From IMG/VR virus record IMGVR_UViG_3300027747_003534, positions 64,001 through 128,000 of that record: a DNA stretch of 64,000 nt; one strand, written 5' to 3'. Of the stretch, positions 3-39,410 are shown piece by piece. The translations under genes were made by a program, and so were the position numbers. The DNA is from a virus. Each line of letters opens with the position of its first letter. Positions within the stretch are counted from its first letter, which is position 1. The notes beneath the pieces are model-generated. The model made no database searches. It was not told the DNA's origin and worked only from the letters and a program-made list of their open reading frames with translations.

Positions 3-3000
3 CTACTAGCTCAGTCTGCTAGAATCCAAGGTATTAATAATCTTATCAAAGCTAGATCATTATTTTCTGGATCTGAGACTTCAGTCAGAAAAGGAGAAAC
101 TAACTTTACCGGAGATATGGCAAGAAGAGATCGTAACTTAGTATATAAAGACCAGACCAGAACTCCTGAAAATTTTGAAGAAAGAGAAAATAACGTATCA
201 AGATCAGGACAAGTAAAAACATTAACGCCAGCAGATAATTCTGCAATACCTGGGTCTGGACCAAACGGAGAGCAAACTTCAGATGAGCGAAGAGAAACTT
301 CCAATAGGGCCAGGATGGCTAATGGCCGTGGAAACTCTGCTATTCGTGGCATTGAACTATGGGATACTAATAGGGATGGTAAAATCTCTTTTGAAGAATG
401 GAATCAATTTCGTCCTGAGAAAGAACCCGAACTGCAAAGATTTTTTGGGGCTTCCACATTTGACGCATTAATGGGAGCTTATTCTTCAGCATTAAAAGGC
501 TTGGGTCTTAGGGATAAAAATGCCACAGATAATTTCAAACCTAGAACTCTAAAAGACTATTTTAAAAATATTGATAAAGACAACACCGGATATATCGAAC
601 AACATGAATTCTCAGATATGGTTGGTAAACCACTAGAATATCTTGATATAGAAACAGATCGAGAAGCAAAAGAACTAGGAGATACACTAGGAACACAAAG
701 AGATCCTAGAGGCGCTCAGAAATTAGCCTATGATAAAATAGATAGAACTACCATCTCATCAGTAAAAAATTTATTAAAACAAGATTTTAAGGAATTATAC
801 CCAGTTTCTTTCTCTAAGGCTTCGCACTTCTCAGAAAGAGAAGTAATACAACCACAGATAGATGCTCTTAGAAAAATCACAGGGGTTTCTGAGCTAGATA
901 AGATAAATAAAAGAACAATCTTAGCAAATATAGGGTCTTCCTTAAATAAGGATAATAGTGATTGGGGTCTCTCTCCCAAAGTTGAGGAAAATCTTGGTAA
1001 TGTTATGGTTAAAATTAAGCAAGATTCTTTGCTATTTCCAGGAGTGGTTAATAAGGCATATACTCAAGGTCTTGCTACTCCTCAAGATCTGCTGCATAAC
1101 CCTGATATTAATTACGAGAAGACCCTTAAAAGGTCAGGAATTCCAGAAGACATATTTAAAACCATATGGCAAGACTATAAGCCAGTTTCTAAGTTTGATA
1201 ATCCGAATAGCAAAGACTCCTTAGACAAAATATATAAATTAAATAATGAGCTTAATTCTCAGGAAATAGGCGAAGACAAAGAAAGAACTACAGCAGCAGC
1301 ATTAAGTCAAAAATCAAACGCTAAAAAAAGATCAGCTAAAAAAGAATTAACAAAAAATACTTTAATAGAACAACTTCTCGTTAAAGCGAAATACTTTGAA
1401 CCAGATGTTTATAACAAGTTATGGCGTGGGCAGTATAAAGACTATTACGATGTGCCTGATCCAACTCTTGCTCGACACGTTGATATGTATAACACCCTGA
1501 TACCTTCCGGCGAAACTGGTCGTTTATCAAAGCCATCCGCAGATCAAGAGAAGGAGTATAGAAATAGATTAAAAGATATTAGTAAAAATCCAATTTATGC
1601 TAATAAAGGAATGCTTATCCCTTACCAACCCAGAGGAACTGATACTGTTCCTGCAATGTTGACTCCCGGAGAGTTTGTTATCAATAGAGCGGCCACCCAA
1701 CAAAATTTACCACTGCTACATGCTATTAATAGTGGAGCTAAAACTTATAGTAGTGGTGGAATTGTATATGCTGCTAATGGAGATTTGATAGGATCATCCA
1801 ATAGCTCCTCAAATAGTGATCTATCTAAAATCTCAGCAGTAGCATCTTTAGTTCCTAAAATCTTAAGTAAAGTAAAAGATTCTGATAAGATTAAATCTAA
1901 TCTCGATACTATTAATAATAACGTTATATTAAATCATAAACAAGGCAAAATATTAAACGATAAAATAAGTTTATTAAATAATAAAATTGATATGGGATTA
2001 GGAGATATTCAAGAAAATATTCCTACTGATAATTATTTGTCAAATATTCCTAATTATTTTTCAAATAATTTATCAAGAAGTTCATCATATGGATTGAATC
2101 ATGGGGGAATAGTTTATGCTGCGAATGGGAAGTTAGTAAATTATCAACCACAAGGAACAGATACTATTCCAGCAATGTTGACCCCAGGAGAATTCGTAGT
2201 TAATGCTCGGGCTACTAGTGCAAATCTTCCATTATTACAGACCATAAATAAGAGCAAGGGAGGCATTGCTTATTTACAACAAGGAGGTCTTCCTAATAAT
2301 AGAGATTTTTTAGAAAATAATAGAGATTTACAAAGATTTACAAGTCGTATTGGATTAAAAGCAGCTAGAGATATCATAAATCATAAAGATATGTATGATA
2401 TTTTTAATAATAATATGTTTCATGAAGACTTGGACGTTGATGCAAAAATAGTTGAGAGTAAGAGATATATCGACAGTCATATAACAGATAGGTCAAAAAT
2501 AGCTGCTAGAGAGCTAGTTAAACAAAGAATAAGGCAGAGACAGCGTTATTTAGACCAAATATTTACAGCTAATCGTTTTACCCTTGATGAAATAAGTTTT
2601 GGCGGGAGAGATCGTGAGCTTAGGTATACATTATTTGGAATAGAACTAAAAGAGATTTTAACTACACAATGGCGCAATGCTCAAGGGGAAAACTATAGGT
2701 TACAAGACGTTATCGAAGGAATCAACCCATCTCGCCCACCTTCTTTTTTTAATAATGGCGGAGTAGTTTATGCTCAAGATGGATTTGATCCATCAAAACA
2801 AAGAATGCCTACTTTATTCGATTTGCCCCAAGATTTTAGAAAACCACATAAACCATATAAGCCAGATGTTAAGCCAAAACCAGGATTAGCTGGAGCATCA
2901 ATAGGAGCACCAGAAAAAGTTAGTGCTACCACACAGAGAGCTATCGATAGTAAGGTTTGGGAACAGACACCTCAAGACATTCCCTATTGGTTTGGAACAA

Positions 3001-6000
3001 GAAAAGAATCAGAAACTGAAAGACAACAAAGAGTAATTGAGTACGGCTTGAACGAAAATCTACCTGAATGGTATAAAAATGCTGGAATGGCTTGGCAAAT
3101 GGTCGAAAATATTGCGCAAGGTTGGGCGGGTACCGGAGGAGCAGGTCATCAGCAGCCTAGATTAATGCAACGAGTAAAAGGATCACGAACACCACTAACT
3201 GGACAAAGACCGAACATTCCTGTTCCTGGTTATGGAGCTTCTAACCCTAATACTCTTAATGATTTAACAACATCAAATGTTACTAGACCAATGGTTAGGA
3301 CTGGAGATACTTTAGATAATGCTACTACTGATGCTGGTTTAAGACGCAGAGTCTCGTCGCCAAAAGATGCTCTTCAGAATGCGTCTACAAACAGTATGTC
3401 TAGACCTAAGCCAATATCAAATCAGGATAGTTTTGGTAACGAATCCACTAATGCTGGATCAAACCCAAAGCTACAATTAGCTCCTTTATCATCTAGTTTG
3501 GGAGGAACCACATCAAACTCCAATGTGTCACAGCCTGCTGTACCATCTAGTTCCTCATCCAAAGGTATTCTTGGTAAAATTTTAGAGTATATCAAAAAAC
3601 CTTTTGTAAAGCAACAAACTGATGAAGATCCACGGATGCCAGTATTTATGACAAAGAAACCAGATTCTGTAACTGAAGGAAATATACAGAAATTACTTTC
3701 AGATAGGCAGGTAGGATATACTGGCAGTTCGTTATTAGCAGGTAGAAATGCAAAACCCGGAATGTTAAAAGAAGTAGACAAATATCTGCGAGATGCTGGT
3801 ATAGATCCATCTTCTATGAAATTTGTTGGATCTGGTAGAGAATCGATGGTTTTTGATGCTGGTAATGGAAAAGTATTTAAACTTGGATATACACAAAATC
3901 GTGATGTTCAAAATATTTTAAAGTCTCCTGATTTAGAAGCTTTGTCTTTACCTTCCGATGTTCCAGGCGTAGCAGGATATACAGGAAGACAAAATATAGG
4001 ACCATATACTGTAGGCTTTCAACAAAGAACTCAAACGCTTGATCCAGAAGCTCAAAAACAATTTCAAACCGGCAATGTCGGTGCTGAAATGCAAAAATAT
4101 TTACGAGAAAAGGGGTACGAATGGAAAGACGCTCATCAGGGTAATGTTGGATACGCTACAGATCCGCGGTTTGGTATACCAACACCTATGGGATCATTAC
4201 AGGTTATTGATGGAGATGTTAGACCAATACAGGCGAAACAAAAAGGAGGCATGATATATGCTTCACAAGGAACACTAGTCAACTATCAACCTCGTGGTAC
4301 CGATACAGTGCCAGCGATGCTGACTCCGGGAGAATTTGTTGTTAATGCTCAAGCAACAAGACAAAATCTACCACTATTACAAAGCATCAATAAAAGCAAA
4401 GGAGGGGTAATTTATTCTGCTAATGGAGGTTTAGTAGGATTACTAAGACGAAAAAATGTTAATAGGATGGAAAACAAAGCACAAAGTACTAATGAAAGCA
4501 ATTCTTGGATAGGTGTTAATGGTGATGGGAAGCCTATGGATAAATTTGGCATGCCTATAGATAATTTAATGGATATTTATCCTTCTGATATTATGTTGGT
4601 TAATGCTCAGTCTAGGGAAAAAGCTTTGGAAGATATCCAAGCAAATACTAACTTTGATAAGGTAAAAGATACAGTACAAAAAGCCTCAGTCTTATGGCGA
4701 AAACAAAAATTAAACTTAGATGAAAATAATAATCGCAAAAGTGATAGTGATATTGTCTTAGACGAGCTAATATATCAAATAGCTTTTGAACCTAAAAGAT
4801 TTGATAAAAATAGCTATAGTTCAGATGCCGATGATACCGTTCTTGCGAAAGCAAAAAAGATAATGGAGGAAATCAATGGAACTGGAGGAGCAGTGCCTCC
4901 CGGAGCTGTTCCAAATGCTAATTTGCAGCTAACCAACACACAACTCTTACAAACTCAGAGAGTTAGTGATAGAATTTGGGAAAGAACAAGTTATTTAAAA
5001 CAAATTGTAAATAATACACAAAATGCGATAGATGTCTTAGGCCATAATCAAGCTAATAACGAAAAAAGAAATATTTTTGATGGAACAACTGTAGACGGAA
5101 CATCACAGTTTGACCCAGCAGCCATTGGAATATCTAATACGACAAATAAGCAAGGGACACAAGTCTTACAATCTCAAAATGATTGGGCAAAAAAAGAATT
5201 AGATTATATAAAAGCTGTTCGTGAGGAGATTATGACTCTCTCAACTCCAGAACAAAGAGCTAATTTAGCTCAAATGCCTAGACCGCCAGAAGTATTATAT
5301 GATGAGACAACACCTATCCCAATGAGATTTAATAGAGGTGGCGTTGTTTATGCTCAAGATGGATTTGATGCATCAAAGCTGCCTATTAATAAAAATAAAG
5401 GTGGTATAATTTATGCTTCACAAGGAACACTAGTAAACTATCAGCCTCGCGGCACCGATACTGTTCCTGCTATGCTAACACCAGGAGAATTTGTTGTTAA
5501 TGCTAAGGCTACGTCTAAAAATTTATCATTACTACAATCTATAAATAATGGAGTCCAGGGATATTCTAATGGAGGAGTGATTGATCCTATCTATAGGCCA
5601 AGGGGTGGATATACCCCACCAAGACCACCAAAACAAACATTAGAACAAAGACAACAAGCATACCAAGATCGTAGAGCAGCTGAAAAAACTGCTCGTGAAG
5701 ATAGAGCAACAGCTAGAAAAAATAAAACTACTTCATATGATCAAATGTTAAACGCTAGGGAAGAGGCTTACAGAGCCAACGTAGACGCTAGGGCAGATAA
5801 TAATAGATCTCCATTAGTAAAAATCTTCGAGGAACTAGAAAAACAAGTAAATGCTAATCCAGATAAATTTGAACTAGTTATGCCTGGCTCTGTTAGATCA
5901 GCTCTTGATGAGGATAAAGATGCGAAAGCAAAATCAGAATTCTATGAACAGCATTTTATGTCTTTGTCTCCAGAAGATGTATATAAGGCCGCTAAGGAGA

Positions 6001-6806
6001 TGTACTTAAAAGATCAAAGACAATTTAAATATTTAGAAGGTATTTATAATAGATCTAAACAAGCATTATTTCAATTTAGTAGATATCCTGCAATAGGAGG
6101 TAGAATAGTTGGCACAAGTGGTAAAACTGCCTTAGCAATACTTTCCAAGCAAGTTGAAGCAGCACATGCTCAGGGCTTAGTATTAGATAATGCTTGGAAA
6201 ATTTTAGGTCAAAAACATCCAGAATTTTTAGCCCAAAATAGCAATCGTCAAAATGCTGCTGGCCATGCCTCTGGAGGAATAATTTATGCTAATAATGGAA
6301 TGCTAATTCCTTATCAACCAAGGGGTAGTGATACTGTCCCCGCCATGTTAACGCCCGGAGAGTTTGTAGTCAATAAACAGGCAGCTCAAAATAATTTAGA
6401 TTTATTACAACAAATTAATAGTAAGAAATATAATCAAGGAGGCCATGTAGTCTATAAAGAAGCTGGAGGGCCAATACAACTTAAAAAACCAATATATAGA
6501 GCTAATGGGGGCATGACCGATGAAACTTCTGGAGGAGGCGGTGGTGTATCTAATAATAAAGATATGGGCCTAAATTTTGATGGATTAAGTCAGTTTACAG
6601 CAACATTTGGCAAGTTTATTCAACAACTAAATAGCCTAAAATTACCAGAAGTTATTAATATTCAAGGAAATCATAAAGTTGATGTTGTCATTAACGGAGC
6701 CGGAGCATTACAAGGTATGCAAGAAGGTATTAGAAACATGATTGTGGGAGAAGTTAATAAAGCCATGAGTAGCATAAGCAAACAAACAGATGGAGCAATA
6801 GCATGA
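3..6806 (+). CDS. Tape-measure-like giant virion protein, 5'-partial, with 5 GTDTVPAMLTPGEFV modules, two EF-hands and a kinase-like domain
   Basis: The frame of ORF 117..6806 stays open back to nt 3, so the gene probably starts upstream of the window. GGxxYAxxG and GTDTVPAMLTPGEFVVN motifs are typical of phage tape measure C-terminal regions. It lies directly before the fibre/baseplate-like genes with an ATGA overlap at 6803-6806. Confidence 0.75.
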   Translation, partial: LLAQSARIQGINNLIKARSLFSGSETSVRKGETNFTGDMARRDRNLVYKDQTRTPENFEERENNVSRSGQVKTLTPADNSAIPGSGPNGEQTSDERRETSNRARMANGRGNSAIRGIELWDTNRDGKISFEEWNQFRPEKEPELQRFFGASTFDALMGAYSSALKGLGLRDKNATDNFKPRTLKDYFKNIDKDNTGYIEQHEFSDMVGKPLEYLDIETDREAKELGDTLGTQRDPRGAQKLAYDKIDRTTISSVKNLLKQDFKELYPVSFSKASHFSEREVIQPQIDALRKITGVSELDKINKRTILANIGSSLNKDNSDWGLSPKVEENLGNVMVKIKQDSLLFPGVVNKAYTQGLATPQDLLHNPDINYEKTLKRSGIPEDIFKTIWQDYKPVSKFDNPNSKDSLDKIYKLNNELNSQEIGEDKERTTAAALSQKSNAKKRSAKKELTKNTLIEQLLVKAKYFEPDVYNKLWRGQYKDYYDVPDPTLARHVDMYNTLIPSGETGRLSKPSADQEKEYRNRLKDISKNPIYANKGMLIPYQPRGTDTVPAMLTPGEFVINRAATQQNLPLLHAINSGAKTYSSGGIVYAANGDLIGSSNSSSNSDLSKISAVASLVPKILSKVKDSDKIKSNLDTINNNVILNHKQGKILNDKISLLNNKIDMGLGDIQENIPTDNYLSNIPNYFSNNLSRSSSYGLNHGGIVYAANGKLVNYQPQGTDTIPAMLTPGEFVVNARATSANLPLLQTINKSKGGIAYLQQGGLPNNRDFLENNRDLQRFTSRIGLKAARDIINHKDMYDIFNNNMFHEDLDVDAKIVESKRYIDSHITDRSKIAARELVKQRIRQRQRYLDQIFTANRFTLDEISFGGRDRELRYTLFGIELKEILTTQWRNAQGENYRLQDVIEGINPSRPPSFFNNGGVVYAQDGFDPSKQRMPTLFDLPQDFRKPHKPYKPDVKPKPGLAGASIGAPEKVSATTQRAIDSKVWEQTPQDIPYWFGTRKESETERQQRVIEYGLNENLPEWYKNAGMAWQMVENIAQGWAGTGGAGHQQPRLMQRVKGSRTPLTGQRPNIPVPGYGASNPNTLNDLTTSNVTRPMVRTGDTLDNATTDAGLRRRVSSPKDALQNASTNSMSRPKPISNQDSFGNESTNAGSNPKLQLAPLSSSLGGTTSNSNVSQPAVPSSSSSKGILGKILEYIKKPFVKQQTDEDPRMPVFMTKKPDSVTEGNIQKLLSDRQVGYTGSSLLAGRNAKPGMLKEVDKYLRDAGIDPSSMKFVGSGRESMVFDAGNGKVFKLGYTQNRDVQNILKSPDLEALSLPSDVPGVAGYTGRQNIGPYTVGFQQRTQTLDPEAQKQFQTGNVGAEMQKYLREKGYEWKDAHQGNVGYATDPRFGIPTPMGSLQVIDGDVRPIQAKQKGGMIYASQGTLVNYQPRGTDTVPAMLTPGEFVVNAQATRQNLPLLQSINKSKGGVIYSANGGLVGLLRRKNVNRMENKAQSTNESNSWIGVNGDGKPMDKFGMPIDNLMDIYPSDIMLVNAQSREKALEDIQANTNFDKVKDTVQKASVLWRKQKLNLDENNNRKSDSDIVLDELIYQIAFEPKRFDKNSYSSDADDTVLAKAKKIMEEINGTGGAVPPGAVPNANLQLTNTQLLQTQRVSDRIWERTSYLKQIVNNTQNAIDVLGHNQANNEKRNIFDGTTVDGTSQFDPAAIGISNTTNKQGTQVLQSQNDWAKKELDYIKAVREEIMTLSTPEQRANLAQMPRPPEVLYDETTPIPMRFNRGGVVYAQDGFDASKLPINKNKGGIIYASQGTLVNYQPRGTDTVPAMLTPGEFVVNAKATSKNLSLLQSINNGVQGYSNGGVIDPIYRPRGGYTPPRPPKQTLEQRQQAYQDRRAAEKTAREDRATARKNKTTSYDQMLNAREEAYRANVDARADNNRSPLVKIFEELEKQVNANPDKFELVMPGSVRSALDEDKDAKAKSEFYEQHFMSLSPEDVYKAAKEMYLKDQRQFKYLEGIYNRSKQALFQFSRYPAIGGRIVGTSGKTALAILSKQVEAAHAQGLVLDNAWKILGQKHPEFLAQNSNRQNAAGHASGGIIYANNGMLIPYQPRGSDTVPAMLTPGEFVVNKQAAQNNLDLLQQINSKKYNQGGHVVYKEAGGPIQLKKPIYRANGGMTDETSGGGGGVSNNKDMGLNFDGLSQFTATFGKFIQQLNSLKLPEVINIQGNHKVDVVINGAGALQGMQEGIRNMIVGEVNKAMSSISKQTDGAIA
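1623..6419 (+). repeat. Five dispersed ~36-codon intragenic repeats at 1623-1730, 2142-2249, 4284-4391, 5439-5546 and 6312-6419
   Basis: Translation YQP(R/Q)G(T/S)DT(V/I)PAMLTPGEFV(V/I)N..A...NL.LL..IN occurs five times. Confidence 0.95.
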
Positions 6807-9800
6807 GCTATAATATTACAGATAATTTGGTTATTGGTAGCGGCATTAATCCTGATATAACATTATCACAAACATCGGGAATTAGCACAGTTTTTAATGC
6901 TAATAAGCAAAATATTGATTTTCAAATATCTTCTACTGGTAATTCTAGTCTCACTTATGATGCTTCTACCGGAAGACTGGGAATTAATACTGGTTTGCCA
7001 GACGCTGTCTTACACATAGTTACTCCATGCTCAAAAGATGGCCTAATTATAGAGAGCATTACTAACTGTCCTACCGGAGTCACTTTGTTACTGGTACACA
7101 ATCCACAAACACAGCCAGTAAGTGGCAGTTATCCATCTATTATAAATCTTGCTGGTAGAGATACTAATTATAATGAAATATATTATGGTCAAATATTATC
7201 TAAAATCTTAGACCCAAATACAGGATCAACAAGTGGGGAAATTATTTTTACAGTTGATCAAACTGGTATAAATAAACCTGTTTTTGTAGCTAATTTAGCT
7301 AATGTTACTTTAGGGGGTAATAATTCTGTTTCTGGTTTTTCTTATAATATTGTTGGTAACTATAATGAATTAAGTGGAACTTTATATAATAATATTGGGT
7401 CTCTCAATACTGGTAAAATTAATAGTGGAATAATTATTGGCAATAGTAATATTGTAAACGGAGACGGAGTATTTCTATTTGCTAATAATTCAGTATTTTC
7501 TGGAGTTTCTGGTATAAACGTAGGAAACTCAATTGTTACCAGTGGATCTAATAATACATTATTAGGTAATTTTGTTAATATCACAGGACTGCATAATATT
7601 TTATTGGGTAGTAATAATAATGCTAGTATTTCATCAACCGTTGGCTTGGCTCAAGGGCTAACCGCTTCTGGAATCTCAGGAATAGTTTTGGGCTCTAATG
7701 CTTCTAATATTGGCGATTTTAATATTTATATAGGGAACGACACTTCAGTATCTGGCAGTAATAATAATCTCATAGGTTCATTAGTATATTTAACTGGTAA
7801 TAATAATCTTTCTTATGGTAATCAAAATATAGTTAGCGGAAATAATCTAATATGTATTGGGTCTTATCAAACAGCATCTAATATTAATAGCGGAATTTTT
7901 ATAGGCAATAGAATAGGTTCCAACGATGCTGTTAGATCCATGATTATAGGTATCGGCAACAATAATAATCCTAATCAACAAGGACTGTCTGATAGCATAT
8001 TACTTGGTATTAATAATACCATAAATAGTGGAGGGGTACCAGACAAGCTTTTATTAGTTGGTCAAAATAATATTATAAAAGACATAACTAATTCTTTATT
8101 GGTTGGAAACCAGAACAATGCTAGTGGTTCAATAAATAATACAGTATTCCTTGGCAATACTAATTCAGCAGGATCTAATAGTAATAATAATATTATTATA
8201 GGTATTCTCAACAATCAAACTGGCGCATATATAAATACTGCTGGTAATATTAGTGGTATTGCTAAGGTTATGAATATTCCTCTTAATAACAGTGTTATTG
8301 CTGGTATTAATAATGCTCAATATGGTGGATTATCTAATAATATAGTTGGAAATAAAAACTCAGTATCCGGCTCGAACGACACTGTAATAGGCTCATTCAA
8401 TGATCTGCGTCATTCTTCAAAATCCTATAGTATAGGTAATTCTAACTACATTATTGGAGATAATATTGGTGCAGCAGGGAGCAATTCATTAATCGTTGGT
8501 AAAGACTCTCTTGTTTTTAATAACTCAGATAAACGTATGGATGTTTTTGGTAGTGGTAATATAGTTTTGGGTTATAATCAATTAGCAACTAGCGGGTTGG
8601 TAGTAGGTACCAATAATAAAATATATGGACTAAATAATACTATTTATGGAAGAAATAATACTCTTGGATCTATTGCTCATCCTTTTCTGATGAATGGTTT
8701 ATCTTCATTCAGCATATCTATTCCGTCATTAAATGTTTCTAATAAATATACTGTGGGCGATTTAGCTCTAATTTCTATCCAAAGTCCAGCTTCTACTGGC
8801 AATACATTTATAAGAGAAATATTAAATATTACAGAGAACACTATAGATAATACTACTGTCGTTCAGTTTAGCACTTCTATTGGTGTTGATGCTTCTAATG
8901 GTTATTATTCTATTAATTCTAATTTTGATGATAATAATAGTCCAAATAATACTGTTGTTAGTGGCTTGATTATGCCATACATGGTTGGTGGAGGTGCTGG
9001 AGGTCCAGAACTTAATCCATCATATGGTTGTAATAATATTATAATAGGATCAAATAATAAATATATATATAGTAGTGGTACAGTGATTGGCTTTAACAAT
9101 AATGTATCTGGTGTTAAAAATGTTGTTGTTGGTTATGGTATTAGCGGAATAACAGATAATACATTATATATTGGTACAAATAATTTAAATAAAGTTATTT
9201 TAGATAATGATTTAATAGTATTTAATTCTGGTAAAGTTCAAAGTAATTTTATTGTTAAATCAACAGATAATAATACTTCAATCGTTAATATTGATCTGAA
9301 TAATAATAGATTTGGAATTAATACCGATAGACCAACAGCTGATTTATCTGTAAGTGGATTAACTAGCACTAGTACAATTAGAGTAGGTTTTTCTTCACCT
9401 GATCAGTATGTTTTAACTTCTAATGTAAATGGCTATGGAACATGGCAATTACCAGTAAGGTTATCAGGATTAGATACTGGCCTAATGGTTAAAATTAATA
9501 ATAAAGTCGGTAGTGGTATTTCTAATATTTATTTTGATCCTAATGGTGAATCATTAAATTTTAATCTAGATAATAATAATGGATTAATAATAAATCCAAC
9601 AGGGATTTTTGTTAATGATGGTGGCAATCTTTATACAATGAGAATCAGAGGGAGCGGTGGTGATGATTTTGCTAAAGTATTATTTAATACTAATCTTGGT
9701 AATAATAGAATAGATTTCTTTAATGTAAGTGGAAATTCTGGAGTCTTTAATAATTTAAGCTTAGCTAGTGGTTTGAGTTTGCCAATAAGTCTTACTGGTA

Positions 9801-11191
9801 CATTCCTTTATGTGAATTCTAGTGGTAAACTATTGTCCTATCCTTCTAGAGCATGCTCTGTACTATATGCCAGTAGTAATTCTTGGGCTACTGGAGATAC
9901 TTCTTTCAGATGGTTTAATAATCAATCAACCTTAGCCCTAGGAGCTACTGGCATTGTTAGTTATGATCTATTAGCAACTAATACTAATGATACAAATTAT
10001 AACATATTATTAAGTTCTAATAATCAAATTGATACAATATTTAATAATCGAGGATTAGGTAATAAATTTTCAGTTATTAATTCTGGAGCACTAAATACCA
10101 GAAGAGGGTTACATATTAGCCCCGCTAGTGGCCAAGTAGCTATTAATGTTATTCCAGATACTTTTAATAGTGTTATTAATCAGGCTCATTTATATGTTGA
10201 AGGTAAAACATGGACTAATAGTTTAAGAATAGGTCCAGGTATTACAACATCTGGCTTATATCTAAGAGTAGATAATGCTGGTAATGTGATCCCTAGCACT
10301 TTAGATCTAACAACACAATTTAGTGGTAATTATCCTATTACTACCACTTATACATCACTTGGTCAAAATAATGCTTTTAGAGTTGATATAGGTTTACAAA
10401 ATGTTGATAGAGCAGGTAATTCTTTGGGAGTTAATAACGATGGTCAGTCTTTAATATGGGATGGAGCCAAATGGAACTTAAATAAAGGCATTATAGCTCC
10501 ACAAAGCTCATGGTTATCTAATGATGACAAAACATTAAAGGGTTTGCAGTTTGGTTATAAGTCCAAGGTAAATTATACGTACCATACTCATGCATTTGCT
10601 GCTGGTTCTTTTTTACATGGATCTAATTTATATGATGGATCATCACAATTTACTCAACACTATCTAAGATGTCGAACTCCTGCTTCTGGAGGAAACATTG
10701 TTGCATTAACAACTAATTTTGCAAAAGACAGCGTGACTACTGAAAATCAGTACAATACTATAAGTCTTTCTAATGTGAATGGATATAATTATGATAATGT
10801 TTGGACATATAATATTTTTGTGTCCGTATTATGGCAAAATGGAACTAATAGCAGTAATCCTGCTGTGGGTGATAGACAAGCTGCTGGTATGAGTATTCAA
10901 GGATGTATTTATAGATCAGCTGATGGAACGATATTTACAAAACTTGGTCAAGAAAAAATAAATATATTTGCTACAGGAGTTGGTGTGGTTGGAATGCCTG
11001 CGGGAATGGGAGTTGGAACATATTTAGATAATGATGGTCAAACTAATGTTCCTAGATTAAGCATACGAGCAACAGGAGTTGATGGAAAAACAGCCCTATG
11101 GACAGCAACTGCACAAATTCACCAATTAAATCATCCGGCAGGGTCAGTTGACGGATCTCCATTCGGATATAATTTATATGGTAGTGTATAA
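6803..11191 (+). CDS. Tail fibre / adhesin-like protein with YadA-head-like beta-roll repeats
   Basis: 1462 aa, rich in N, G and S. Many (I/V)G..N repeats at ~14-aa spacing. Fibre-type motifs GRLGINTGLPDAVLHI and NRFGINTDRPTADLSV. Confidence 0.65.
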   Translation: MSYNITDNLVIGSGINPDITLSQTSGISTVFNANKQNIDFQISSTGNSSLTYDASTGRLGINTGLPDAVLHIVTPCSKDGLIIESITNCPTGVTLLLVHNPQTQPVSGSYPSIINLAGRDTNYNEIYYGQILSKILDPNTGSTSGEIIFTVDQTGINKPVFVANLANVTLGGNNSVSGFSYNIVGNYNELSGTLYNNIGSLNTGKINSGIIIGNSNIVNGDGVFLFANNSVFSGVSGINVGNSIVTSGSNNTLLGNFVNITGLHNILLGSNNNASISSTVGLAQGLTASGISGIVLGSNASNIGDFNIYIGNDTSVSGSNNNLIGSLVYLTGNNNLSYGNQNIVSGNNLICIGSYQTASNINSGIFIGNRIGSNDAVRSMIIGIGNNNNPNQQGLSDSILLGINNTINSGGVPDKLLLVGQNNIIKDITNSLLVGNQNNASGSINNTVFLGNTNSAGSNSNNNIIIGILNNQTGAYINTAGNISGIAKVMNIPLNNSVIAGINNAQYGGLSNNIVGNKNSVSGSNDTVIGSFNDLRHSSKSYSIGNSNYIIGDNIGAAGSNSLIVGKDSLVFNNSDKRMDVFGSGNIVLGYNQLATSGLVVGTNNKIYGLNNTIYGRNNTLGSIAHPFLMNGLSSFSISIPSLNVSNKYTVGDLALISIQSPASTGNTFIREILNITENTIDNTTVVQFSTSIGVDASNGYYSINSNFDDNNSPNNTVVSGLIMPYMVGGGAGGPELNPSYGCNNIIIGSNNKYIYSSGTVIGFNNNVSGVKNVVVGYGISGITDNTLYIGTNNLNKVILDNDLIVFNSGKVQSNFIVKSTDNNTSIVNIDLNNNRFGINTDRPTADLSVSGLTSTSTIRVGFSSPDQYVLTSNVNGYGTWQLPVRLSGLDTGLMVKINNKVGSGISNIYFDPNGESLNFNLDNNNGLIINPTGIFVNDGGNLYTMRIRGSGGDDFAKVLFNTNLGNNRIDFFNVSGNSGVFNNLSLASGLSLPISLTGTFLYVNSSGKLLSYPSRACSVLYASSNSWATGDTSFRWFNNQSTLALGATGIVSYDLLATNTNDTNYNILLSSNNQIDTIFNNRGLGNKFSVINSGALNTRRGLHISPASGQVAINVIPDTFNSVINQAHLYVEGKTWTNSLRIGPGITTSGLYLRVDNAGNVIPSTLDLTTQFSGNYPITTTYTSLGQNNAFRVDIGLQNVDRAGNSLGVNNDGQSLIWDGAKWNLNKGIIAPQSSWLSNDDKTLKGLQFGYKSKVNYTYHTHAFAAGSFLHGSNLYDGSSQFTQHYLRCRTPASGGNIVALTTNFAKDSVTTENQYNTISLSNVNGYNYDNVWTYNIFVSVLWQNGTNSSNPAVGDRQAAGMSIQGCIYRSADGTIFTKLGQEKINIFATGVGVVGMPAGMGVGTYLDNDGQTNVPRLSIRATGVDGKTALWTATAQIHQLNHPAGSVDGSPFGYNLYGSV

Positions 11192-11217
11192 TAAGTATTA
11201 GTTAGTAAGGACAAATA

Positions 11218-12657
11218 ATGGGATCATTATCAATAGGACCTAGCTTAAAATTAACACCAATTCCATTGGTCACAATAAGCAATGAAATACAAAGGGACGG
11301 AGCAGGAAAACCCATAGGGTGCACAACCAATATTACATTGAAGGGAGAAATATATCCCTCCGGAATACAATTTGGAGGAAATGATAATAATAATCCAACA
11401 CAGCAGTATACAGATGCATTATTAAACACCGCTCTACAAGCAGCAACTGGCATAAGACAAAAATTAAATAATTTATTTAGAGATTCCACGCCTATAGATC
11501 TAACACTGCCTAATTCATATGGCTTATTCACTAATTGTTATATTAAAAAATATTCTGTAGACGAAAATGAAAATAGATGGGTTAATACTATCCCATATAG
11601 CATAGAACTAATCTGCGAAAGAAATGAGCCCTCTGGAAATTTATATTTAGTTAATAGTACCAAAGACTCTTGGACTATAGAATCACTAGAAGAATATTGG
11701 AAAACAAATGCCGAAGGAGCTGGAACTAAGGGTCCTCTGTATAGAATTACTCATTCTGTAGGAGCTGTCGGAAAGTATTATCCAGGAACAACTCCGTTGC
11801 AAAATGCTAAGCAGTGGGTTAATAGTGGAAACTTAAATTTTGATGGTAATATAAATATAAATAATAATTTAGTGTTATTTAATCATATTAGAAAAGTAAA
11901 TATTAATAAATTTGAGGGTTCTTATGGTTTTGATGACACTTGGTTAGCTGTTGATAATTTAGAAGATATTTCAAAACATTCTATAGAAAATTTTGAAGTA
12001 GAAATTAGTATTGATGAATCTAAAAATATTGTAGCAAATGTTAAGGGGTCGGTTCAGGGAATAGAATTGTTTAGTAAAAATAATACTGGAATTCCAGGTT
12101 ATGATAAACCTGCTACTGATTCAACAAATTTTATTCCTACTACTGGGAGATTTGCTAATGCTTTAAAAACATATATTGATGTTAGAAATCAAATAAATAG
12201 TAGAGCTAGCGCTTTAGCTGGAGCAACATTAAATCCTAAACCACTGTCTATAGTAGAAGGATTTGATTCGGCTGCTGGATTGATAACATATAGCTTTTCT
12301 TATGATAGTAGACCAAAAACTATAGTGCCAGAAGCAATCAGCGAAAATATAACCGTAGATACTAACTATGGACAAAAAAAATTATATGCTTCTATTTTTG
12401 TTCTAGGACGAAAATTAGGTCCAATATTACAAGAAATTAACTCAAATGGAACATATAGTTCTACTACTGTCAATTATGAATGCGTTTTACCATCTTCAGG
12501 AATAGCAAATCTTAAATTTCCAATAACAATTTATAATAGTATACCTATTAAAGATTTTGCTCCTGACAATTATTTATATGTACAAAATAGCGGATTTTCT
12601 TGGAATATGAACGAAAATAGATTATCTATGACAATAGAGTATGTTCACAATGAGTAA
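11218..12657 (+). CDS. Virion structural protein (putative tail hub/baseplate), paralog of next gene
   Basis: 479 aa ORF in the tail module sharing motifs with 12641..14170. Confidence 0.5.
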   Translation: MGSLSIGPSLKLTPIPLVTISNEIQRDGAGKPIGCTTNITLKGEIYPSGIQFGGNDNNNPTQQYTDALLNTALQAATGIRQKLNNLFRDSTPIDLTLPNSYGLFTNCYIKKYSVDENENRWVNTIPYSIELICERNEPSGNLYLVNSTKDSWTIESLEEYWKTNAEGAGTKGPLYRITHSVGAVGKYYPGTTPLQNAKQWVNSGNLNFDGNININNNLVLFNHIRKVNINKFEGSYGFDDTWLAVDNLEDISKHSIENFEVEISIDESKNIVANVKGSVQGIELFSKNNTGIPGYDKPATDSTNFIPTTGRFANALKTYIDVRNQINSRASALAGATLNPKPLSIVEGFDSAAGLITYSFSYDSRPKTIVPEAISENITVDTNYGQKKLYASIFVLGRKLGPILQEINSNGTYSSTTVNYECVLPSSGIANLKFPITIYNSIPIKDFAPDNYLYVQNSGFSWNMNENRLSMTIEYVHNE

Positions 12658-14170
12658 TATAACAATATCTTTTAATAATTTATCTTTAGTCCCTACTCCA
12701 GCAGTTAGTATTAATACAGAATATTTAACTGTTGGTAGTGGTATTTCTAAAATACATACAATTAATCTAAATGGTTTATTATTTTGTAGTGGAATAACTG
12801 GTTTAATATCTGGCATAGAGACACCTAATGCTACCGGCATTTTAAATATTAATAGTAGTAGCTATGCTGTTAAAACCCTTAGTTCTAGTTTAGAACCAAC
12901 TAATGATAATTGGAGTACCACAATTCGTTATTCCATGAGTTTTGAAGGAGTAAGAACAGATGAAAATCCAGCTTTTAATACTTCAACAAATTGGCTGGTA
13001 AGTAAGATACAGGATGATTGGTCAATTGATCCATTAGATGAAAATTTTAAATATATTACAGAGCCAAATTTTGATACAAAATTATATACTCAACATCTAG
13101 CCAGCGATCTTTATTCTTTACCAGACTATCCCTTTTTTAAAATTACCAGAACCATAGGAGCAGTTGGAAGATATGAAACAAATAATCCTAATGTATTAAA
13201 TAATGCAAAAAATTGGGTTGATAATTATATAACTCAAAGTGATTCTACTCCTAGCTCATTTTTAACAAATTTTAGTAACATATATAATCATGTTAGAAAT
13301 ATATCTAAAAGCGTTACAGAGGGCTCGTATATCATTACTGATACTTGGGTAGCTAGTCGTGGTGGTGAAAACTATATACAAACATTAAATATACAGAGCT
13401 CATTAGACAGAGACGCCCTTAGAACAGTTACTATTGATGGAGAAATTAAAGGATTATCCAACGCCAATAAAACCTGGACAGACCCTGGTGCTAGTGGACT
13501 TATTATTCCAGCAGTTGCCGACGCGGCTGTCAAATATAATAATGCTCTTGCTAGATATGATGCAATATCAAATACTTTTACTGGTATGGCTACTAGCATG
13601 TTAGTTGAGACCTCTAGAAATACTAGTAATATGGTATATGATAATAATTTTAGATTTAAAACTGAATTTAATAGAAATGAGTCCAACGTAATAAATCCTA
13701 TTCCATTGTCTAGTGGAACTACTCATAATAAAACAGAAGGATCTGTAAAATTTAATATTACGTTTAATAATAGGCCAATAAATTATTTTAATGGAATATC
13801 AGAAAATATTAATGTTCAAGATTCTATTGGTATGTCAAAAATCATAACTCAACTAGTAATGTATGGTCCTCCGGTTTTGCAAGACTTGGGAACAAAAGCA
13901 TCTAATACTAGAACAATTTCTATAGATGCTAAATTTGCAAACGACCCTACTGTACAAAGTACTATAACTTATTATAATACATTAAAAACTAAAAAAGATA
14001 GCGTTAGGAGTTTAGTAACCAGTCTTGATCCTGGAAATGTATTAAAAAATATATCATCTCCTAACTTAGAAATAAAAAGCTTTTTAAAGGATAGTAGTGC
14101 CAAGATAGATGTGGCTAATAATTCTGTATCATGTAATGCTACTTATGAATGGGTCTTTAAAGGAAAATAA
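12641..14170 (+). CDS. Virion structural protein (putative tail hub/baseplate), paralog of previous gene; start may be 12650
   Basis: 509 aa. FKITRTIGAVGRY, LNNAKNWV, YNHVR and EGSY...DTW match the upstream gene. Confidence 0.5.
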   Translation: MFTMSNITISFNNLSLVPTPAVSINTEYLTVGSGISKIHTINLNGLLFCSGITGLISGIETPNATGILNINSSSYAVKTLSSSLEPTNDNWSTTIRYSMSFEGVRTDENPAFNTSTNWLVSKIQDDWSIDPLDENFKYITEPNFDTKLYTQHLASDLYSLPDYPFFKITRTIGAVGRYETNNPNVLNNAKNWVDNYITQSDSTPSSFLTNFSNIYNHVRNISKSVTEGSYIITDTWVASRGGENYIQTLNIQSSLDRDALRTVTIDGEIKGLSNANKTWTDPGASGLIIPAVADAAVKYNNALARYDAISNTFTGMATSMLVETSRNTSNMVYDNNFRFKTEFNRNESNVINPIPLSSGTTHNKTEGSVKFNITFNNRPINYFNGISENINVQDSIGMSKIITQLVMYGPPVLQDLGTKASNTRTISIDAKFANDPTVQSTITYYNTLKTKKDSVRSLVTSLDPGNVLKNISSPNLEIKSFLKDSSAKIDVANNSVSCNATYEWVFKGK

Positions 14171-14172
14171 TA

Positions 14173-17100
14173 ATGAGTTTAGTACAGACACAGTTTTTAG
14201 GATGTAGTATAACAAAATTTAACTTTAATTTAGCATGGGGGGAGGACAATAGCCAAGCTAATATAACAGTAGTTTATGATGATTCTAAAAGTAGTTCTAG
14301 TGTAGCTAACCAAGCTGATAGCGTTAAAACTAGTTTAATAAATAGAATGTCATCTAATGGAGATATTCCTACTCAAAATAGTTATATTATATCTCAAAGC
14401 ATACCATCAGATATGTCTGTATCGGCTAAAAAAAGAAGGTGGCCTACTAATAGTACAGTTTCTACAACAAGCGAAGAGGCTGATCCTAATTTCATAGGAC
14501 TAAACTATGATATAATAGGATGTCCAGCTAGATTTAAATATGATACTAATTTAGAATTTGGTGGATTGATCAAAAGTTGGAAAACAGTAGGATCAGTATC
14601 TGGAAAAGATATGTATGAAGTTACTTTACAAGGATACTCTACATTACTAAATAATAGCTATTTAATAATTAATAATTATATAGGATCTATTTCAGATTTT
14701 GTTGATAGTGATTGGGCGTCTCCTATGATAGTTGATACCGTTGGTGGTGGAACCCCAACTTTGTATCAAGGAAATATACCAAATGTCTTTAATGTTTATG
14801 GTTCCTATGAATCTGCTGTTTTTGGTAGTTCATTAAAAAATGACAGAGGAATGTCAGCTAAACAAATATATAATTTTTTAAGAAATTCATTCTCTTCTCA
14901 AAATCAATATAATCCTTATGGTGGACTAGTTACTAAAACAGTCGCTAATTTTGGTGGATCAATAATTGGTACATCTTCACTTCAGGATCAAGGACTATGT
15001 CGAGATATATCATGCGCTGATTCTATACAAAGAAGTTTATTTTCTATTGATATATCAGATATTCCAATACCTCCTGATACTTTATATATCCCTAATTCCG
15101 TTATAAGTATTGGAGAATTTATAAGAATATTATGCGAAGGCGCCGGGTGTGATTATTCTGTGATTTTTATTAATAGCACATCTGGAAATTTCACAGGAAC
15201 AATTAAAATAAAAACTGTTTCGAGAAGAAGCATACCATCACCGAATGCATTAAAAATTCAGATCAATAATTTAATAAATCAAAATAGTTCTAAGATATCT
15301 AGCTATTCTTACGGTCAAGAAATTTCAGATAATCCATTAAGATTAATGTATATAGGAGGAAAGCAAAAAAGACTTTATCAAGCTTTGTCTACTAATTTAT
15401 CTCAAACTCAAACAACAATGGTATATGATCCATATAAAGGTGTTTTTATGGGTTTGCCAGCTGCTACAGTAAATCAATATATGGTTCCAGATCGTAAATT
15501 TACAAGACGTTTTAATTCTTGGACTGAAGGAGTAGGATATGTTGGACAACAGGCAACAGCCACAGACTTTTATTCGACTGTAAATTTGGGCAGCGTCTAT
15601 TCAAGATGGAAGAATAATTATGAAGGAGTGGATAGTAGTTCAAATTCTTCAACTTCCAATTCTAATTATGCTATATACAATGATATTATAAGTCCTTATT
15701 TTGGTATGAATGGAGATACTTATAGTGATAGTGGAGCTGGTAATTTTAGCGGCACAGAAAATAATTATTCTTATTCTGATGCCAGAAAAGTATACTGGGA
15801 TAAAGAAACAAATCAATTAATGATAGTATTTATTAAAAATGACATAACTAGAGTTTTATCTAATCCATATTATGATGCTAGTTCATTTATAGTTATTGAA
15901 AATGAATTACGAGCAGCAGGAGCAGGTTTTGAATCATGGTTTACTTATTGTTTTGATAATTTCTTCTCAACAAATATAGAATCTCTAATGAAAGGATATT
16001 TTAGTAGTACATATGGTGGAAATTCTTACTTTAAAGCAATATCGATTATTAAATGGAATAGCATAGGAAAACAGAGCGGATCCATGAGTTTTAATAATCA
16101 TCCTGGAAATATAAATATTGATAATGCTAATGCATACGTTAGAGCTTTCTATCAAGATCTAAATAAAGTTTGGGAAATTATGAAAAAAGTTCATGATACA
16201 TATTATGGTAAATCATATATGGTTAGGACTCCATCAGTTCTATATTATCAAGACCCAGAGTCTGGTCAATATTTTTATAATTGGCAAATATCAACAGATG
16301 GAGCTTGGGAAGAAAATGGTACATTTATTGATGACACTATGGTTATTGGTTCTACAGTAGCTGATACTTTTAGGGATGAGGTAGGAAAGATAAAACCTAT
16401 TTTAGGCTTTAATGCTAATGCAGATAAATCAACAAAGGATGATTGGCTAGATACTCAACTTCAAGCATCTGCAGCTGGGGGCATGGGAGCTATGCATGCT
16501 GTAATTCAAAAAGAATATAGAAAATTTACATCAAGAGCAGAACAAAATAAATTCTTTTATTTTCCATTAGAACATAACTTGAGTCCAAGTGATTATACCT
16601 ATATACAATATGCTAGTCCATCAGTACAAAATCAAGGATATAGTTTTCCTTCTGTTAACGATGGAAGTTTTACAACTCCAAAAGGAGACAGTATTCCACA
16701 GGGCTATTCTTACAAAATGTATGTAGCAGCATCAGCTCAGGAGCAATTAGTTTATATAGATGGTACTCCTAGGGTAGTAATGTCTATAGATCAACCAATT
16801 AAATTAGGAGGTGGTAAAAATGAATGTGAAAGATCCTTAGTTTTTACTATGTTACATGATGCTATTTTAGCAAGCAAATATAATAGAACATTTAAATCTG
16901 GTTTTGACTCTACTAAAATTCGTGATGGAGCATTATTATCTTGGTTTTTGTGCGGAAATGCTAGGATTTCTAATGATATAAATACTACAGTTAGTGTTAA
17001 TGATAGTGGGCCTAACATTCCAATAGAACCTAAAGCAACATGTCCAGCATTTGCTGCTATTCCTATTCAATTTAATTTGGCTACTTATGGACCATGGATA

Positions 17101-19191: not shown

Positions 19192-19198
19192 GTTATCA

Positions 19199-22100
19199 AT
19201 GAGTAGTTGTTACATATTCAATAAATCATTATTAGAAAGTGTTAATTATAGTCAAGCTACTATTAATACCACAGCGTTATCTGCACTAATACCTGCTTTT
19301 GATAGCAGTACTAGTGGACTTTGGTTACCTATCATTATATCTTCTTCAACATTATCAGATGTTGATTTTTTAATACAACCAAAAAGTAATCCTTCACAAG
19401 TATCATTCGATCCCACAAACTGTACAGATGCTAGTAGCTATGATTATGACACATTACAATTAGATGCTTCTTTTAATTGTTCATATTGTAATAATTTTTT
19501 GACACCAGATTATAAGGCAACTTGGAATCTGACAGATGCCGATGGTGCCTCCAAGGGTCCTTTTACATCTGATTGTTCAAGTGGGGCCTGTGATACAAGA
19601 ATGAGGAAAGATGATTATTTACAAAAAATACCAATACTGAACCAAAATTATTTGAATAAATTTTTTGATTTCAAGTATCTTAAACAATTCCCAGCAGCAT
19701 CAAATCCTGGATTAGGTTTTGGTTCATTTATAACATTTCCTCAAAATTCTTTAACTAGCATATTTTCCCAATCTCCACAACTAATAATAGATTGGAGAAT
19801 AAAAGAAACTATTGATGAAATACCATACGATTTATCAACCTCTCAATATAATTCACAGTATGATCATGACAAAGCTTATAATAAAGCCAAATATTTATCT
19901 CAAACATGTGGTAATTTTATACATAGAAGTTCTTTAAATGAATCAGAATCAAATATTAATAAATTACTACCAGATGTTGATAACTTTATAACTCCATATG
20001 GTTTTGATAAAGATACTTACCATAATATTTTTATTAAAACAAAAAAAGTAGCATCTTATTGGAAATGGAATTATAATTCTGGTGTTTTATGCTGGTATAG
20101 ATATTTTGATACAAATAAAACTTCGGATACTAGACCAATAAAAGGTGTTGATTTATATATTTCTCCTGGAGATGTTTTTTATGCAACGAATGACGGACCA
20201 GAACCAAATAATACTATAACAGAATTTGATAGTGCTTCAAATGCAATTAAACCATGTCCCTCCGGATTAAAAATTATAAAAGCATCAGGAGTAGCTGAAA
20301 TTATTCCATCAGGATCAGCATTTACCTACATATCTGCTAATATATATTCTAAATTTAGGTCTATTTATAATAGAATAAATAAAGCTGTGAGCGCTGATGG
20401 CTCTAGTAAAACAGTACAACAAAAATTTGATTTGGCGGCTTTGTTGGCAACAGCTCCAGAATATGATGAAATAACAGTTGATTTAACAAAAAGGAATGCA
20501 TCATATTCATATATAATTAATAATTATTTTCAAATTTCCGGATTAAATATAGATATGTTATCTGGTACTGAGTATGGATCAGTCGGTAAACTTAACTATA
20601 TTAAAAACTCTGGAGATTTAATTAATACATTAGCAAATAAATATGGGGCCTATCTATGGTGTCCTCATAATACCACATCTACTATACAATTATCTAATAA
20701 TATTAATCATCAATGTTTAATAGATTTAGATTTCGACGTTGTTGCTTCAATATCTGATGTGAAAATGAGCTCAAATACTTGTACGCCAACAACAGACTGT
20801 ACCGCTAATACATTGCAAAAGAATTTTAGCTATTCTCAAAAGTTTGTTGTAGGAAATGTCACATTTGAATCTCGTTTAAATACAGGTACCCAATATAAAG
20901 CTGTTTGTAAAAATAATGCTATGGTAAAAACAAATAGTATTCAAACAGCAGGGTTACTATTAAATAGTAGTACAATAAAAGAGGTTCCCTATAATAGTGG
21001 TTGTTATACTTTTTCAGATAATTATCCAAGAATACTCGTAAATGGACAAACTCCTGCAAATAGCTGTTGTAATAACTATAATGATTCGGATAACTATCCA
21101 TGTAATTTTTGTGATCCAGATAGTACGTATTATTTACCAAATGTCAAGGCAAATAAGATATGCACAGAATATACTGGTAATGACAGCTGGTGCGATCAAA
21201 GATCTGCTTTTGGAGATAGGCCCGCTAGGAATATTCAAAACAATACCTTATATTATAAACGGTCTTATCCTGCTGCTGCATTTAATCCGCATCTTGACTA
21301 TGTTGCTTTTCATCATCAAGGAGGAGTATTTTTTAAAAATAACTTATTTGGTGACAACATTAGCGGAACAACAGCATTCGGTAGTAACTCATTATTTAAT
21401 GATACCAATGGAGGTATTTGTAAGCTAGAATTTACAACTAGTAATGTTGGTATTAAGATATATTCTTTAAAAATAGAAAAATTAAGAGGTAGCTCATCAG
21501 ATAGCGCTGGTTGTAGAGCATTCCCCATATCTAATAAATGTAAATGTTTTAATATGTTAAAGGTGACTGATTTTCCTTATAGATGCGGTTCTTCACAAAT
21601 AACATATGGAGCTGGTAGTATATATACCCCTAATCTTTCTACACAATTTAGTCCACCAGTTAAAGCCTATGGCGGATATTCATTAAATGATATTAATAAA
21701 TTGTTAGGAGGAGGAGAAATTTCAAGTCAAATTGCTGCTCTGAAAAAAGAAATTAATAATTTAAGCGAAACTATAAAATTTATGGAATTAGCTGGATTAT
21801 CAATAGATAAAGATGGAACAACTCTTGAGTCATATAAAAATGATAGAACATCAAAAAGAAGTACATTAAATGGCCTAACTCAAGCCTTAGCTGAATTTAG
21901 AATTCCCGGCCACCCTGAACCAGAAAATATTTTATCTTCAGCAAGTAAATATATTGATCCTATTTACCCATATGGGAAAAGTAGATCCGTAACAGCTACA
22001 TTAAATAATTATGTTACAACATATTATAATATAACTTTACCATCTTATAATACTGTTCATTCAGATATTTGGGCTGAAATTATAGAAGATATAGATTTAT

Positions 22101-36842: not shown

Positions 36843-36870
36843 ATAATACGAACTGACGGGACAGCGTCAA
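36843..36870 (-). promoter_or_regulatory. Sigma70-like promoter of ssb
   Basis: TTGACG-N16-TATTAT on the minus strand; the -35 box overlaps the dnaE-C stop codon. Confidence 0.55.
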
Positions 36871-39206: not shown

Positions 39207-39410
39207 TTAAATTAATTCTACTTCTACTAGAGGCGTGACCTGAACCTTTTGGGCAGGATCAGAGAGTAACGCTGCGGTCAATACATGACAACAGCTCTTT
39301 CTTTCTTCGGGTATTTTTATATATTCACTGACGGGACCACCATTAATCGAAACCTTAAACTTTTGACCAACTGTAAGATCCATAAATTTTACCATAATAT
39401 TATTCTCCAT
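39207..39410 (-). CDS. Small hypothetical protein (SH3/KOW-like beta, CC motif)
   Basis: 67 aa, overlapping the dnaE-N stop and filling the gap. Confidence 0.6.
   Translation of the reverse strand: MENNIMVKFMDLTVGQKFKVSINGGPVSEYIKIPEERKSCCHVLTAALLSDPAQKVQVTPLVEVELI

Follow-up and report, generated by a model that had tools for sequence, protein, structure and literature searches.

In this study, we sought to determine what a kinase-like domain is doing inside the tape-measure protein of a large phage. The domain is encoded in a 64,000-nucleotide stretch of DNA (the window) from IMG/VR record IMGVR_UViG_3300027747_003534, the genome of an uncultured phage of 161,520 bp (~161.5 kb; GC 33%) that CheckV rates as complete; the window comprises bases 64001-128000 of that genome. 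By combining motif analysis, structure prediction and an exhaustive search for relatives, we characterized a self-contained, miniature protein-kinase-like (PKL) cassette at window nt ~3561-4235, one of many unrelated cargo cassettes that are strung between the repeat modules of the tape measure. The explanation that we favor, with moderate confidence, is that this cassette carries the full machinery for ATP binding and phosphotransfer, is delivered by the tape measure and phosphorylates host proteins. The features on which this explanation rests, and those found elsewhere in the window, are collected in Table 1.

A preliminary description of this DNA had reported four kinase motifs, in the correct order, between a Ser/Pro-rich linker and the third of a series of repeat modules. 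Translation of window positions 3-6806 confirms the motifs and their order, and the positions then quoted for three of them (3828, 4128 and 4209) fall on the codons for G1276, D1376 and D1403 (residues are numbered here as in P0002, the part of the protein encoded in the window, unless another protein is named). The linker does precede the domain and module 3 (KQKGGMIYASQG...PAMLTPGEFVVN) begins at aa 1412, immediately C-terminal of the kinase segment. The domain was also rightly called minimal, since it stops 8 aa past D1403, the Asp equivalent to that of the kinase DFG motif, and only one short strand follows this residue in the predicted structure. The start of the open reading frame (ORF), placed by the same description at nt 117, was incorrect, as the ORF continues past the 5' end of the window. 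Combined in order in one regular expression, the four motifs matched once in the full-length, 7,794-aa protein, and of 3,000 shuffled versions of it only 8 gave any match, so the motif pattern alone is unlikely to have arisen by chance; stronger evidence comes from the structure of the domain and from its relatives.

The preliminary description had made a kinase-like fold the structural check on its proposal, and such a fold is what we obtained. AlphaFold2, run on a 12-sequence alignment of the domain family (A1), returned a model with a mean pLDDT of 87.9 and a pTM of 0.82. Its helices (H) and strands (E) are arranged as H, E, E, E, H, E, E, H, H, E, E, E, E, E; strands flank the Gly-rich loop and are succeeded by a short helix, two strands, two helices, the strands of the catalytic loop and a strand that ends at D1403. 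In a longer model, of aa 1183-1420 (pLDDT 79.8), further N-terminal helices are seen with moderate confidence from ~aa 1213, at model residues 41-51, 57-63 and 72-82 (block pLDDT 61-90), while model residues 1-30 are of low confidence. With Foldseek, at least 278 chains in the PDB matched at E≤1e-3, and the matches listed were kinases or aminoglycoside phosphotransferases (APHs) of the APH(2'') type, APH(2'')-Ia being the top one. VIA-align, a structural search independent of Foldseek that lists the best 50 chains, gave the same result. In a wide search, all 50 of the chains listed were kinase-like, including ULK4 (Z 8.3; rmsd 3.6, 123 residues aligned), TkArkI (Z 7.7; 147 aligned), Rio1 (Z 7.6; 139 aligned, rmsd 3.5) and OspG (Z 6.8; 123 aligned), and on a second pass Aurora A scored Z 9.1 and PKR Z 9.0, with Z≥5 for 863 of 999 chains. 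SteC (PDB 8JBI) is not among the 50 chains listed in either search, which speaks neither for nor against a likeness to it. Matches in BFVD were mostly to annotated protein kinases of phages and giant viruses, T7-like 'protein kinase' entries among them, or to unnamed phage proteins, and six of the ten cluster rows from the ESM Atlas carried Pkinase Pfam families. When set against the features that define the PKL superfamily, the domain has the bilobal architecture, with a truncated C-lobe, and the catalytic residues, and lacks the Glu of helix αC. We conclude firmly that the fold is kinase-like; the Z-scores single out no subclass.

For relatives of the domain, we searched 1.84 billion cluster representatives exhaustively with phmmer (E≤1e-3). 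The 15 proteins recovered were the 7,794-aa protein itself, a partial 1,401-aa protein (P0004; a 36%-identical homologue that shares the repeat modules and whose single copy of the domain is 40% identical), eight stand-alone proteins of 213-262 aa, and several large multi-domain proteins. The invariant columns of A1 include G1278, K1293, Q1340, D1376, N1381, G1383 and D1403. In a wider alignment of 17 domain copies (A4), D1376 and N1381 are present in every copy, the Lys at K1293 in 16 (Arg in the other) and Q1340 in 15, and D1403 is misaligned in one; E1280, just before strand 2, is found in at least 90% of the A1 sequences and in 15 of the 17 copies. These copies are just 20-40% identical to that of the window and come from AT-rich as well as GC-rich phages, in embedded and stand-alone forms. 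That the four catalytic residues are kept in nearly all such distant copies is a pattern typical of selection on catalysis. The distance from the catalytic Asp to the DFG-type Asp is 17 residues in the stand-alone members, as in ordinary kinases, and 27 in the window protein owing to an insert of 9-10 aa that it has in common with P0004. The N-terminal extension of the cassette is a loose equivalent of the first ~60 aa of the stand-alone members.

Some searches gave results that we set aside. The sole Pfam match to the segment, to RecX_HTH1 at E 0.05, was judged spurious. A profile search of the PDB with A1 was uninformative, as it returned artefactual summed matches to the designed 'Pizza' propeller repeats and to Fis, and a lone kinase, TkArkI, at E 0.65. 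A scan of viral contigs with the single domain as query found no match.

Truncated kinases of a similar kind have been predicted before. Iyer, Burroughs, Anand, de Souza and Aravind (2017, J Bacteriol; PMC5512222) described, from computational analysis, a monophyletic kinase that lacks the C-lobe and keeps its active site in the 'polyvalent proteins' of Verrucomicrobia-Chlamydia and Bacteroidetes (pro)phages; they knew of stand-alone versions, judged these truncated kinases to be nearer to protein kinases, and proposed a role like that of the T7 kinase after injection. In their domain and in ours, the C-terminal kinase subdomain is wholly lost and the residues for ATP binding and phosphotransfer are kept, and both occur in huge multi-enzyme phage proteins, together with ADP-ribosyltransferase and zeta-toxin domains, as well as in stand-alone genes. 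Of the three marks by which their kinases are recognized, a Glu preceding strand 2 and a Gln within the N-lobe's final strand correspond to E1280 and Q1340. As to the third mark, an insert between the conserved His and Asp of phosphotransfer, the window family has W-x-D-x-H rather than H-x-D, and the 9-10-aa insert, placed between H1378 and D1403, is confined to the window protein and P0004. From these sequence features, the window family is likely but unproven to be of the same clade. The carriers differ, in that the domain of the window sits in a tape measure (recognized by PF10145, and by PF20155 in the related protein P0006), whereas the set of Iyer et al. was seeded from MuF, Alt, DarB, N4 virion RNA polymerase, relaxase and Ard proteins and tape measures are never mentioned there. 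The idea of a kinase within the phage's injected protein is less new than the preliminary description implies, because truncated kinase domains of injected polyvalent proteins had already been predicted in 2017. For its location inside a tape measure, our literature search on kinase, ADP-ribosyltransferase, zeta-toxin, polymorphic-toxin or anti-defence domains in tape measures found no earlier paper on a kinase.

T7 gp0.7 is a Ser/Thr protein kinase encoded by a stand-alone early gene that is expressed in the host. The window family resembles it (PF27024) in the order of the motifs, in the unusual D-x-H-x-G-N catalytic loop (FDMHSGN in T7, KDAHQGN in the window) and in the distance between the two Asp residues (18 in T7, 17 in the stand-alone members), and the alignable kinase part of gp0.7 likewise stops ~25 residues past the DFG-equivalent Asp. 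When A1 was compared by hhalign with a seven-sequence alignment of gp0.7-type kinases (A3), in which the motifs read FDxHSGN and ITDP, the two were collinear over 114 columns, from the Gly-rich loop to the DFG Asp, with a score of 27.2 and an E-value of 0.0038 at a probability of only 8.7%; 30 column-shuffled alignments scored 9.8-18.3 and a reversed alignment 12.5. This profile alignment supports remote homology and a working analogy rather than membership of the same family. None of 12 family members had a match to PF27024 in Pfam at E≤10, gp0.7 has TDP where the window family has IDG, and gp0.7 is not a component of the virion. RIO1/RIO2, TkArkI and OspG are likewise small PKL domains without the activation segment and the substrate-binding subdomains. 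They are only 12-17% identical to the window domain, score no better than ordinary eukaryotic-type kinases, and keep helices past the DFG motif, where the window domain ends.

The claim that the kinase is embedded in a tape measure holds as well, as the same ORF contains PF10145 and the same domain occurs in two other giant tape measures. The complete ORF spans genome positions 47422-70806, with its 5' part outside the window, and its 7,794-aa product is identical to a database protein (P0003). PF10145 (PhageMin_Tail), the tape-measure core, matches aa 265-469 of this protein at E 1.7e-21. Nine repeat modules of the PAMLTPGEFV/TPGEF type are distributed along the protein, five of them in the window part, and they match PHROG 25241 and 17300, both 'tail length tape measure protein'. 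Structural genes, including tail-fibre-like and baseplate-like genes, lie upstream, and the gene order is the same in a syntenic relative (contig L007), placing the ORF where a tape measure is expected. In the part of the ORF upstream of the window, Pfam finds two matches to an ADP-ribosyltransferase (PF03496, ADPrib_exo_Tox), the best stretch being aa 1589-1671. The carrier is a genuine tape-measure protein that has other effector-type domains beside the kinase. It differs from the usual tape measures in having many cassettes and in being several times longer. Within its N-terminal 5,527 aa (locus L005, genome 47422-64000), ~5,000 aa are without any Pfam match. The window part also has a pair of EF-hands, and such a calcium-binding cassette is unusual for a tail protein.

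Peptidoglycan-hydrolase motifs are embedded in the tape measures of mycobacteriophages. These, like the kinase cassette, are functional inserts unrelated to the ruler and are presumed to be active at infection. They differ from it in being small and in acting on the wall, outside the cytoplasm, while the window kinase has an ATP-dependent fold that would need the cytoplasm. By analogy with other phages, the giant protein would be present in the tail of the virion and would be ejected at infection.

The domain recurs elsewhere, both within independent giant tape measures and in phage genes that encode it alone. P0011, a 4,808-aa protein with an N-terminal PF10145 and the same repeat modules, has two tandem kinase-like copies (aa 860-1290). 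It is encoded on the 199-kb contig L007, which is syntenic with the window phage, and the two tape measures are 60% identical at their N-termini and 45% identical at their C-termini; the kinase lies at aa 860-1290 in the one and at aa 6757-6948 in the other. Such a shift in position between related tape measures is the pattern expected of swappable cassettes. P0006 (5,055 aa, on a 29.8-kb Logan contig) has PF20155 (TMP_3) at its N-terminus, four kinase-like copies at aa 1364-2944, in one of which the β3 Lys is replaced by Arg, and a Zeta_toxin domain at aa 2573-2742. In the linker N-terminal of the cassette, a short motif is repeated four times (as NTLNDLTTS, DTLDNATTD, DALQNASTN and DSFGNESTN), and these repeats could be phospho-acceptor or docking sites; three similar copies are found at the equivalent place in P0004 and none in P0011 or P0006. 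Embedding is one of two deployments, because stand-alone members of the same family exist. These are encoded in non-structural regions of smaller phage contigs, some beside a DUF6321 gene, with which the stand-alone kinase may form a conserved pair. P0013, a 1,214-aa protein from the replication module of a 35.8-kb phage contig, combines kinase-like pieces with an InPase domain (PF18823) and a cytidylyltransferase-like domain. Its matches to the kinase family are weak and partial, and it has a faint precomputed match to the Pfam family Phage_T7_kinase. The domain mix of P0013 hints at nucleotide substrates for some relatives.

In well-studied phages, the tape measure is expelled ahead of the DNA. 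We propose that the giant tape measure would be assembled into the tail with its kinase cassette in place and, at infection, would leave the tail before the DNA. The cassette, possibly refolded or cleaved after ejection, would then take host ATP and phosphorylate host proteins before phage gene expression, as T7 gp0.7 does after its own expression. The conserved residues and the modelled fold suggest that the cassette may be catalytically active. Analogy with known systems suggests that its substrate may be a protein rather than another kind of molecule, that it may be released or refolded, and that it may arrive in the cytoplasm.

Several of our results weigh against this proposal. The segment had no match in PHROGs, in a phmmer search of the PDB, or in tblastn and megablast searches of 50,697 phage records, and Pfam and NCBIfam scans of every family member found no kinase family below E 0.1 (ABC1 0.12, PglW 0.13, MAD6 0.17). 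The structural Z-scores, at 7-9, are moderate, and the matches favor no one subfamily of kinases. In A1, the short helix after β3 has no conserved acidic residue to act as the αC Glu that pairs with the β3 Lys; E1280 in the Gly-rich loop may, in line with Iyer et al. (2017), substitute for it. Because the domain stops just past the DFG-like Asp, the C-terminal subdomain (αF-αI) is absent from the model, and the αF helix that anchors the kinase spines is missing with it. Delivery raises difficulties of its own. A folded domain of ~170 aa seems, by our own estimate, unlikely inside the lumen of the tail tube, so the cassette would travel unfolded or be stored elsewhere. Pfam scans found no peptidase domain in the carrier protein that would be able to release cassettes. 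The tape measure could also end in the periplasm or the membrane, where there is no ATP.

The main alternative to a kinase of host proteins is an active phosphotransferase with another kind of substrate, whether a small molecule, a nucleotide, RNA or an envelope precursor, that might, for instance, inactivate a signalling nucleotide of the host or damage the envelope during entry. Models for such an enzyme are the aminoglycoside phosphotransferases, the Kdo/WaaP kinases and the archaeal tRNA kinase TkArkI, as well as zeta toxin, which has a different fold. In keeping with this idea, the top Foldseek match is an aminoglycoside phosphotransferase, and TkArkI, the APHs, YihE and amicoumacin kinase stand level with protein kinases in VIA-align. 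The C-lobe with which protein kinases bind their substrates is absent, P0006 pairs the domain with a zeta-toxin sugar-nucleotide kinase, and P0013 joins kinase-like pieces to InPase and cytidylyltransferase-like domains. We nonetheless regard a non-protein substrate as unlikely, given that T7 gp0.7, a protein kinase, is indicated both by the D-x-H-x-G-N loop and by the collinear alignment of the profiles, that P0013 matches the family weakly and in part, and that truncated kinases were placed nearer to protein kinases by Iyer et al. (PMC5512222). Another possibility, to which we give still less weight, is that the kinase acts inside the cell that produces the virions, or in cis, rather than in the next host; by phosphorylating the neighboring linker or other virion proteins, it might control the folding, assembly or later ejection of the tape measure. 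ATP is present in the cytoplasm of the producer, and a Ser/Thr-rich linker with four motifs lies directly upstream of the domain and is conserved alongside it in P0004. Such a role accords poorly with the finding that P0011 and P0006 have the domain without the linker motif, that the position of the domain in the tape measure is not conserved among related phages, and that stand-alone members occur in non-structural regions, which favors a function in the host cell over one in tail assembly.

It is also conceivable that the fold is catalytically dead and has been kept as a nucleotide binder or structural spacer, as the missing C-lobe and αC Glu might suggest. We consider this very improbable. 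The catalytic residues have persisted in nearly all copies, which are only 20-40% identical to that of the window, and T7 gp0.7, a known Ser/Thr kinase, has the same loop motifs and a similar end past the DFG-equivalent Asp. Finally, each short motif is common when taken alone and there is no sequence match in Pfam or the PDB, so that the motifs might have come together by chance in a protein that is long and of odd composition, without any kinase fold. This reading is effectively refuted, both by the rarity of the composite pattern among shuffled sequences and by the 15 homologues with the same invariant residues, the confident AlphaFold2 model and the uniformly kinase structural matches, and we give it almost no credence. 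Phosphorylation of host proteins by a delivered kinase is the explanation to which we return below.

Elsewhere in the window are genes for a split DnaE, for DnaB and primase, and for ribonucleotide reductase and glycosyltransferases. Between the two ORFs of the DNA polymerase III alpha subunit are a 230-aa ORF (38491-39183) and a gap, and the split could mean either that a mobile element has inserted there or that the polymerase is genuinely divided. Several very large ORFs follow the tape measure. None of the five ORFs scanned in that region (all except the 2,278-aa one) had a match in Pfam or PHROGs, and contig L007 has counterparts of similar size.

Table 1. Features of the tape-measure ORF, its kinase cassette and other loci discussed (positions in window nucleotides unless a contig is named; aa numbering of P0002)
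Feature	Position	Strand	Basis or remark
Tape-measure-like ORF, C-terminal 2,267 aa (P0002)	3..6806	+	ORF listing, translation
EF-hand pair within the tape measure, aa 113-207	~339-623	+	Pfam EF-hand_1, E 5.8e-9, two stretches
Ser/Thr/Pro/Asn-rich linker N-terminal of the cassette, aa ~1060-1186	3180..3560	+	Sequence
Motif of the form D-[ST]-L-x-N-x-[ST]-T-[DN], four times in the linker, ~20 aa spacing, aa 1083-1150	3249-3452	+	Sequence
N-terminal extension of the cassette, partly helical, conserved with P0004	3561..3764	+	BLASTP homology with P0004 over aa 1097-1418
PKL core, aa 1255-1411: strands β1-β5, short αC helix, two helices, catalytic loop, DFG-like strand	3765..4235	+	AlphaFold2, structural matches
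Gly-rich loop FVGSGRESMVF, aa 1274-1284, between β1 and β2	3822..3854	+	Flanked by model strands 34-38 and 42-48
E1280, family-specific Glu just before strand 2	3840-3842	+	Precedes model strand 42-48
K1293, β3 (VAIK-type) Lys, in KVFK, aa 1290-1293	3879..3881	+	Model strand 51-57; invariant in A1
Q1340, Gln of the last N-lobe strand	4020..4022	+	Model strand 96-102; invariant in A1
Catalytic loop WKDAHQGN, aa 1374-1381; D1376 predicted catalytic base, N1381 predicted metal ligand	4122..4145	+	Invariant in 17/17 copies
VIDGD, aa 1401-1405; D1403, DFG-equivalent, predicted metal-binding Asp	4203..4217	+	After model strand 158-162; invariant in A1
Repeat module 3, GGMIYASQG...YQPRGTDTVPAMLTPGEFVVN...NLPLLQSINKSK	4236..4400	+	C-terminal boundary of the kinase cassette; translation, PHROG matches
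Very large ORFs after the tape measure (1,462, 1,672 and 2,278 aa), with 479- and 509-aa ORFs between	6803-25999	+	
Split DNA polymerase III alpha, two ORFs: PHP and NTPase domains (625 aa); finger, HhH and OB (543 aa)	36867-38498 and 39400-41277	-	
90-aa DUF6321/phrog_7595-type gene directly after a stand-alone, ~250-aa family member	L001 1521-1793; L002 2472-2744; L010 7984-8256		Three contigs

Taken further, the recurrence of the domain suggests a wider idea, which we advance tentatively and regard as plausible rather than probable. The giant tape measures of a lineage of 160-200-kb phages may be a modular delivery chassis, whose interchangeable cassettes (kinase, ADP-ribosyltransferase, zeta toxin and others) would be shuffled between related phages and fed through the tail to the host before the DNA. 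In that case, the kinase would be a counterpart of T7 gp0.7 delivered by the virion, and would rewire host proteins before phage transcription, by a route separate from that of the MuF, Alt, DarB and N4 virion RNA polymerase carriers. Such delivery would also raise a mechanical question, that of how a protein of ~7,800 residues, globular domains included, is stored in a tail and passes through it.

Altogether, this study maps the catalytic residues of one member of a kinase-like family for which Pfam, NCBIfam and PHROGs have no model, which should aid the annotation of other members, and it offers a defined case against which to test the prediction, made in 2017, of truncated kinases as phage effectors. 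If the kinase is active and delivered, the phage would modify host proteins at entry, before transcription and before an inducible defence response, and a tape measure would be able to carry folded enzymes amounting to several times its own ruler length. The main interest of the finding is the prospect that a tape measure delivers pre-made enzymes to the host.

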